From a virus (taxonomy: Duplodnaviria; Heunggongvirae; Uroviricota; Caudoviricetes): DNA of 6,779 nt. Below, in pieces: positions 6,616 through 6,779 of this stretch (position 1 is its first letter; the number at the start of each line of letters is the position of its first letter). Position numbers and translations under genes: made by a program. The DNA is taken from positions 1-6,779 of the IMG/VR virus record IMGVR_UViG_2698536369_000007. One strand, 5' to 3'. The notes below the pieces were generated by a model that saw only the letters and a list, made by a program, of their open reading frames with translations, searched no databases and was not told where the DNA came from.

Positions 6616-6659
6616 CTTTACTTTCATTTTCTGTCGGCGGTGACGGAGACATACATCAG

Positions 6660-6677
6660 ATGGAAAAAATCACAACG
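6660..6677 (+). pseudogene. 5' remnant of a lambdoid holin (S) gene: ATG + EKITT, then an in-frame TGA that coincides with the start of the IS-like terminus
   Basis: GGAGAC SD (6645-6650), ATG 6660, codons M-E-K-I-T-T match the N-terminus of phage 21/Stx-phage-type holins as I recall it. The frame stops at TGA 6678-6680 and downstream sequence no longer encodes holin-like hydrophobic residues. Confidence 0.35.
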
Positions 6678-6779
6678 TGAACCGCCCCGGGTTTCCTGGA
6701 GAGTGTTTTATCTGTGAACTCAGGCTGCCAGATCATCGTTGCCGATGGAAGCATAATAAGCTTTTTCTGCTTCTGCCGG
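6678..6779 (-). mobile_element. terminus of an IS3-family insertion sequence (IS629/IS1203-like), continuing past the window end; transposase probably on the - strand
   Basis: Sequence from 6678, TGAACCGCCCCGGGTTTCCTGGAGAGTGTTTTATC, starts with the TG...-type terminus I associate with IS629-type IS3-family inverted repeats. It begins exactly where the holin frame breaks. On the - strand an open frame with no in-window start enters from beyond 6779 and runs through the IS end into the flank, as expected for the 3' end of an orfB transposase. Confidence 0.45.

Follow-up and report, generated by a model that had tools for sequence, protein, structure and literature searches.

The holin gene S at the end of a lambdoid prophage segment is broken after only six codons, and what follows the sixth codon is one end of an element that, judged by its sequence, is a member of the IS3 family of the IS629/IS1203 type. 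The segment analysed here comprises 6,779 nucleotides and is referred to as the window. Its genes identify it as the Q-to-S stretch of a non-Stx lambdoid E. coli prophage: hokD is followed by DUF968, RusA, Q (PF06323), three tRNAs, TerB/DUF3927, a NanS-p-type esterase, a terminator and S, the esterase being the last intact cargo gene of the late operon before the holin (Table 1). As the best explanation for the whole we propose, with a good deal of confidence, that S was broken by a recent simple insertion of IS629/IS1203 and that the prophage would be impaired in lysis. The truncation of a holin after six codons by an IS3-family element had already been put forward by an earlier sequence-only reading of the same DNA, and this core claim was right: both the identity of the IS element and the match of the intact holin allele to PF04971 bear it out. 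The damage is real but of an ordinary kind. To the IS hits in the lysis cassettes of EHEC-type lambdoid prophages it contributes a further independent one, in line with the part that IS629 is known to play in the decay of prophages and in polymorphism between strains.

Table 1. Positions of the features at the holin-IS junction and of other elements of the window
Feature	Position	Strand	Basis or remark
End of an IS481-family element	1-96		transposase start codon at 39-37 on the minus strand; comparison with E2348/69
hokD	111-266		intact ORF
SASA/NanS-p-type esterase, 616 aa	4362-6212	+	PF08410, PF03629, PF20350; annotation in relatives
Intrinsic terminator	6578-6614	+	11-pair stem, 5-nt loop, T-rich tail; just 5' of the holin gene
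GGAG Shine-Dalgarno sequence of the holin gene	6645-6648	+	sequence; 11 nt 5' of the ATG
Stub ORF, ATG GAA AAA ATC ACA ACG TGA	6660-6680	+	sequence
Holin gene remnant, codons 1-6 (MEKITT)	6660-6677	+	same as the opening 18 nt of intact genes for the 68-aa holin
ACG, predicted left copy of a 3-bp target-site duplication	6675-6677	+	from the empty site and the IS1203 survey
TGA stop of the six-codon stub	6678-6680	+	formed by bases 1-3 of the IS terminal repeat
Terminal 102 bp of IS629/IS1203 (IS3 family)	6678-6779	-	99-100% identity to annotated copies
Imperfect 25-bp terminal inverted repeat, TGAACCGCCCCGGGTTTCCTGGAGA	6678-6702		22/25 against the opposite terminus of a full copy
Transposase (OrfB part), last 19 codons and stop (6720-6722)	6720-6779	-	ends in ...PAEAEKAYYASIGNDDLAA, followed by the stop

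The holin remnant and the end of the IS element

Between positions 6570 and 6779, a hairpin terminator, the GGAG motif and the ORF starting at ATG 6660 follow one another in this order, and from 6678 the DNA reads TGAACCGCCCCGGGTTTCCTGGAGA... The match to the features that had been described for this region is far beyond chance, and the terminator, the Shine-Dalgarno sequence, the start codon and the stop of the stub all lie where they had been placed in advance. The stem of the terminator extends from 6578 to 6604 and is followed by TTTTTGTTTT. A terminator scan returned 4 sites as compared to 0.3 expected, and the folding energy of this one (-19.8 kcal/mol, z = -3.8) was equalled or surpassed in 0 of 200 shuffled sequences. 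The curated record of phage 434 (OL657226) carries the same terminator, the same ribosome-binding site and a CDS labelled 'pinholin class II' at equivalent positions. The 11-pair stem, the z-score and the annotation in phage 434 all agree with the idea of a strong terminator directly upstream of the start codon; a late transcript would need antitermination by Q to pass it. The Shine-Dalgarno sequence had been called well placed: the GGAG is present and equivalent to the ribosome-binding site of phage 434, but its spacing of 11 nt is somewhat long.

To judge from the alleles of relatives, the stub is the start of a gene S for a class II holin of the phage 21 type (pinholin, PF04971). The uninterrupted alleles in STEC799 and in the draft contigs L005-L014 open with the same 18 nt, their sequence being ATGGAAAAAATCACAACGGGTGTG..., and beyond these 18 nt they go on with GGTGTGTCATACACC... 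to give a product of 68 aa. The intact allele matches the Pfam family PF04971 (bacteriophage P21 holin S) with 112.8 bits (E = 7e-33), and the homology of the window to the uninterrupted alleles ends at 6677. Since the intact PF04971 alleles share the opening 18 nt, holins of this family do start with MEKITT, the point on which the assignment of ATG 6660 to a holin N-terminus had been made to depend. The other check that had been suggested, the search for an intact holin ORF elsewhere, leaves the truncation standing as well: in a tblastn comparison of the intact holin with the window only residues 1-6 matched, and the window holds no other holin-like CDS. With only the first 18 nt kept, the window has a gene remnant and therefore encodes no member protein of PF04971; the two transmembrane segments and the charged C-terminus of a class II holin are missing from an ORF that ends after six codons, as expected if the gene is disrupted. 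In the empty-site contigs, in STEC799 and in phage 434 the gene stands at the head of the lysis cassette and is followed by genes for the endolysin and the spanins. Holins of the same Q-to-S region in Stx phages have been classed as pinholins of the P21 S family (PMC10462455).

The closest described counterpart of the uninterrupted gene is the S21/R21 system of phage 21, to which the S genes of 933W, H-19B and 434 also belong: here as there, a 68-aa PF04971 holin is followed, in the relatives of the window, by a lysozyme of the SAR type. The holin in the phage 434 record is identical to the 933W pinholin at 65 of 68 residues. The window differs from S21 in that it retains six codons, and in that the upstream in-frame codon is ATA and not ATG. 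This codon lies 9 nt 5' of the holin ATG (6651-6653), and with standard starts only the 68-aa form would be made, so that the two-start motif seems to be absent. The canonical motif with two starts (71/68) for holin and antiholin is, as we take it, a feature of S21. Calls of 71-aa holins in relatives were considered as evidence for a dual start and rejected, as these calls begin at the ATA. An 81-aa ORF (6472-6717, plus strand) passes through the terminator and, in another frame, through the holin start into the IS element; it has no record in the protein collection and is produced artificially by the junction. An annotation should treat this 81-aa ORF as spurious and label the six-codon ORF as a pseudogene of the holin, with IS629/IS1203 as the interrupting element.

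The assignment of the element rests on the comparison with complete copies. Positions 6678-6779 agree with the first 102 bases of the 1310-bp IS1203 in the O157:H7 strain EC4115 at 101 of 102 positions (the difference is G/T at 6741) and with an IS1203 copy in strain PK8241 at all 102 (E = 2e-45). The full copy in EC4115 could be delimited: it is 1310 bp long, starts with TGAACCGCCCCGGGTTTCC... and has at its other terminus, as an imperfect inverted repeat, TGAACCGCCCCGGAAATCC... A nucleotide identity of at least 95%, as demanded for IS629/IS1203, was thus reached over the 102 bp that can be compared, and an imperfect terminal inverted repeat of the form TG...CA is present at 6678-6702, its partner end being taken from the full copy. 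The 19 C-terminal transposase codons are identical to those of the EC4115 copy, whose CDS is annotated with 'programmed frameshift'. Altogether, 6211 records match 6678-6779 with 90-100% identity, on chromosomes as well as plasmids, and matches occur in 4074 of the 5426 complete E. coli genomes; the matched features are labelled 'IS3-like element IS1203 family transposase' by RefSeq. No more IS629 sequence was found elsewhere in the window. The minus strand of 6720-6779 encodes the C-terminus of the transposase; the right, transposase-distal end is therefore the visible one, and relative to the late operon the element is in antisense orientation. It had been noticed that the frame stops where a repeat resembling that of IS629 begins: the element does start at 6678, and the TGA is provided by the terminus of the IS.

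The empty site and the kind of event at the junction

The draft contigs L010-L013 contain what is nearly the same DNA with an empty site. Over window positions from about 100 to 6677 they show one difference, at position 4586, which is synonymous and located in the esterase gene; L012 has another one at 1054. With the difference at 4586 being synonymous, no protein sets the window apart from these closest relatives, and among the contigs listed for the identical esterase protein, longest first, all have the empty site. At the site itself, these contigs have ATCACAACG directly followed by GGTGTG and read straight into the intact 68-aa holin. Downstream of the holin they encode a 90-aa minus-strand ORF, a 177-aa lysozyme, Rz/Rz1, PerC, terminase, gpW, a portal protein and an S49 protease. 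In L010, the start of the lysozyme gene lies about 900 bp 3' of the holin ATG. Since DNA that is only one base off has the empty site, the insertion appears to have happened recently, in a prophage that is otherwise conserved. The unit of terminator and holin is common, being found at a coverage of at least 80% in 698 of the 5426 complete genomes. The exact junction is absent from the 5426 complete E. coli genomes, phage records, GTDB species representatives, JGI metagenomes and IMG/VR; the search included an exact 35-mer across the junction, which had no match in genome, metagenome or viral contigs. A full-length match in one piece was likewise found neither in the 5426 complete E. coli genomes nor in the phage records. 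Being absent from all collections searched, the junction could serve as a marker for strain typing. What is new is only the precise insertion site; the element, the gene and IS629 hits in EHEC prophage genes are well known.

The most likely event is a simple insertion with a duplication of ACG. An insertion by copy-out/paste-in would duplicate three base pairs, here ACG, and in a survey of nine IS1203 copies, all of them 1310 bp long, such a 3-bp duplication was present in seven (TAC three times; GCT, CTG, ATC and GGG once each) and absent in two, so that something else would be expected in about one case in five. Under a simple insertion, the other end of the element should read ...GGCGGTTCA and then ACGGGTGTGTCATAC, its far flank would be ACG-GGTGTGTCATAC..., and the right junction as a whole is predicted as ...CCGGGGCGGTTCA-ACG-GGTGTGTCATACACC. 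Past the 1310-bp element one would then expect the remaining part of S together with the genes for the SAR endolysin and Rz/Rz1 and those of the head. The second IS end and the rest of S-R-Rz are located beyond the window, and a simple insertion therefore looks the same within it as a deletion or rearrangement mediated by the element.

That the IS end marks a deletion, an inversion or a recombination between two IS629 copies, with what is left of S, and possibly R-Rz and the head genes too, being displaced or lost, is in our view unlikely, but it has precedents. The two surveyed copies without a target duplication mark rearrangements: next to the second copy of EC4115 there is a fragment of the esterase-holin spacer in inverted orientation, a sign of an inversion brought about by the IS, and the copy in strain 2002-3211 lies at the 3' end of the holin gene. 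Moreover, another IS is present at the left boundary of the window, and IS629 is described as a source of deletions in EHEC (PMC9943667). Against this stand the seven of nine copies that are simple insertions with a 3-bp duplication, and the contigs with a single base difference, in which the full lysis and head module follows right after the empty site, which makes the event a recent one. An assembly artefact, in which two sequences were joined chimerically or the end of a contig was wrongly prolonged into a repeat, would also place IS sequence at this point. Both ends of the window reach about 100 bp into repeated IS sequence, as would be expected for a short-read contig broken at repeats, and related draft contigs start at window positions 100-336. 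However, there is no homology between the holin stub and the IS terminus by which they could have been joined falsely, the holin sequence gives way precisely to base 1 of the IS inverted repeat, as it does in real insertions, and ending within a repeat is the normal behaviour of an assembler at a true junction. We thus regard an artefact as hardly credible and retain the simple insertion as the preferred reading. With positions 1-100 and 6678-6779 being IS repeats, the window looks like a whole short-read contig, and breakage at repeats explains why it stops before the far side of the element.

Lysis and IS1203 in related lysis cassettes

Since the terminal TGA of the element ends the stub ORF, the native start can yield no holin. 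In a prophage with such a holin-null allele, the sharply timed (saltatory) lysis after induction would be lost. Transcription antiterminated by Q would probably still cross the element, and a SAR endolysin could still bring about delayed, gradual lysis. In the near-identical relatives, the partner lysozyme has an N-terminus rich in Gly and Ala (MNAKIRYGLSAAVLALIGAGASAPE), and a phmmer search with this protein gave matches to the PDB entries 3HDE/3HDF and 4ZPU, the homology to 3HDE covering the N-terminus. We take 3HDE/3HDF to be the SAR endolysin of phage 21, and the partner lysozyme of the relatives is, by this similarity, probably a SAR-type homologue of it. Export of SAR endolysins needs no holin, and when acting alone they cause slow and gradual lysis, which pinholins make sharp and timed (PMC9025707). 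For an stx2::IS629 insertion in the late operon of an Stx2 prophage, it has been reported that the downstream lysis and head genes were still expressed and that plaque-forming phage was made (PMC7430833). The slow lysis by a SAR endolysin alone and the non-polar stx2::IS629 insertion make the earlier statement that an IS in S would abolish lysis too strong, even though it holds that no holin can come from the native start. If the rest of the cassette is present, the prophage would be lysis-impaired rather than necessarily lysis-dead. The label of a lysis-defective prophage is thus to be read as an expectation.

It is also conceivable that lysis is normal, either because holin is still made from an in-frame GTG 3' of the IS element or because another prophage supplies it, but we consider this very unlikely. 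A restart has a parallel in EC4115, for which RefSeq lists, with an internal GTG 3' of the insertion as its start, a 55-aa 'class II holin family protein', and the pinholin of phage 21 is said to form holes even without its first transmembrane domain. Yet the 55-aa call is an automatic annotation, and no Shine-Dalgarno sequence is evident before those codons in the IS terminus. As to supply in trans, other prophages in the same genome could provide a holin: this holin is present many times over in EHEC-type genomes, and among all genomes with a match the median is 2 places (highest 14). A lysis-impaired prophage is therefore kept as the expected outcome.

The insertion in the window has close relatives among the IS629/IS1203 insertions in EHEC prophages, such as stx2::IS629/IS1203v and the holin::IS1203 insertions in EC4115 and SS17, with which it shares the element, its orientation and the target gene family. 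In EC4115 the element lies 12 bp further into the same holin gene, after codon 10, with a TAC duplication, and its terminal TGA likewise ends the stub; SS17 gives the same gapped one-piece match. The site in the window, after codon 6 (ACG), is different, and the window shows the element at one end only. In other strains, IS1203 lies at no fewer than seven further sites within or beside the lysis cassette (represented by L001, which is EC4115, L002, L004 and L016-L019). In the holin gene it is found at codon 25/26 in CFSAN027350, with a GCT duplication, and at the 3' end in 2002-3211, without one. It is located in DUF1327/ydfR in strain 9234, at two different sites of the lysozyme gene in OK1 and Z1835, and in the spacer between esterase and holin in many O157:H7 strains (e.g. 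ATCC 43894). An apparent orientation bias of IS1203 in lysis cassettes was rejected because the query had fixed the orientation.

In EHEC strains, IS629 is removed by an IS-excision enhancer, and the function of lacZ and stx2 has been regained through excision of this kind. Given the many positions of IS629 in the cassette and this enhancer, it is tempting to speculate that insertion into S and excision from it could switch a prophage between a state in which the cargo is expressed without lysis and a lytic state. Precise excision would then restore ATCACAACGGGTGTG. That the IS in S blocks lysis reversibly in this way, or that prophages are tamed recurrently and under selection by such insertions, we consider improbable; a new question would arise only if the recurrence of hits in the cassette proves to be selected or reversible.

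The region from hokD to the esterase

The genes upstream of S had been assumed to remain expressible after the insertion. For the tRNAs and the esterase, which lie upstream and are unaffected by it, this is reasonable, but for hok it is doubtful. The IS481-family end stops 14 nt 5' of the ATG of hokD. In the uninterrupted locus of STEC799, an Rfam match to sok (116.9 bits) lies in the space that is replaced by the IS481 end, and no match to the Rfam sok family was obtained in the window. As the IS481 end replaces the sok/mok region, the hok ORF is cut from its own promoter and from the sok/mok leader. The same junction of IS481 and hokD is present in 62 complete genomes. In E. coli K-12, hok loci are reportedly separated from their regulatory leader by IS elements, and in the window an IS likewise lies immediately 5' of hokD, with the sok region replaced; the family of the element (IS481) and the locus are different.

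Several further features of the region deserve mention. The spacer between DUF3927 and the esterase contains a full-length Rfam match to the STnc100 sRNA (RF02076; 4052-4224, plus strand; 100.8 bits, E = 9e-22). The TerB-family gene at 3422-3883 seems to be split into ORFs at 3422-3589, 3561-3740 and 3737-3883; it is intact (142 aa) in STEC799 and ATCC 43894, and several near-identical contigs have only a 48-aa call. The tRNA at 3032-3107 is called tRNA-Met (CAT) by ARAGORN and tRNA-Ile in the RefSeq relatives, where it is the first of an Ile-Arg-Arg trio 3' of Q; presumably it is of the ileZ type and read as Ile after lysidine modification. Finally, a promoter-like sequence (TTGCAA-17-TATATT, 2805-2833) overlaps the end of Q, and 50 bp 3' of it there is a GC-rich hairpin with A/T runs (2885-2908), which was reported on the minus strand. 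The two are placed like the late promoter pR' and the terminator tR' of lambdoid phages.
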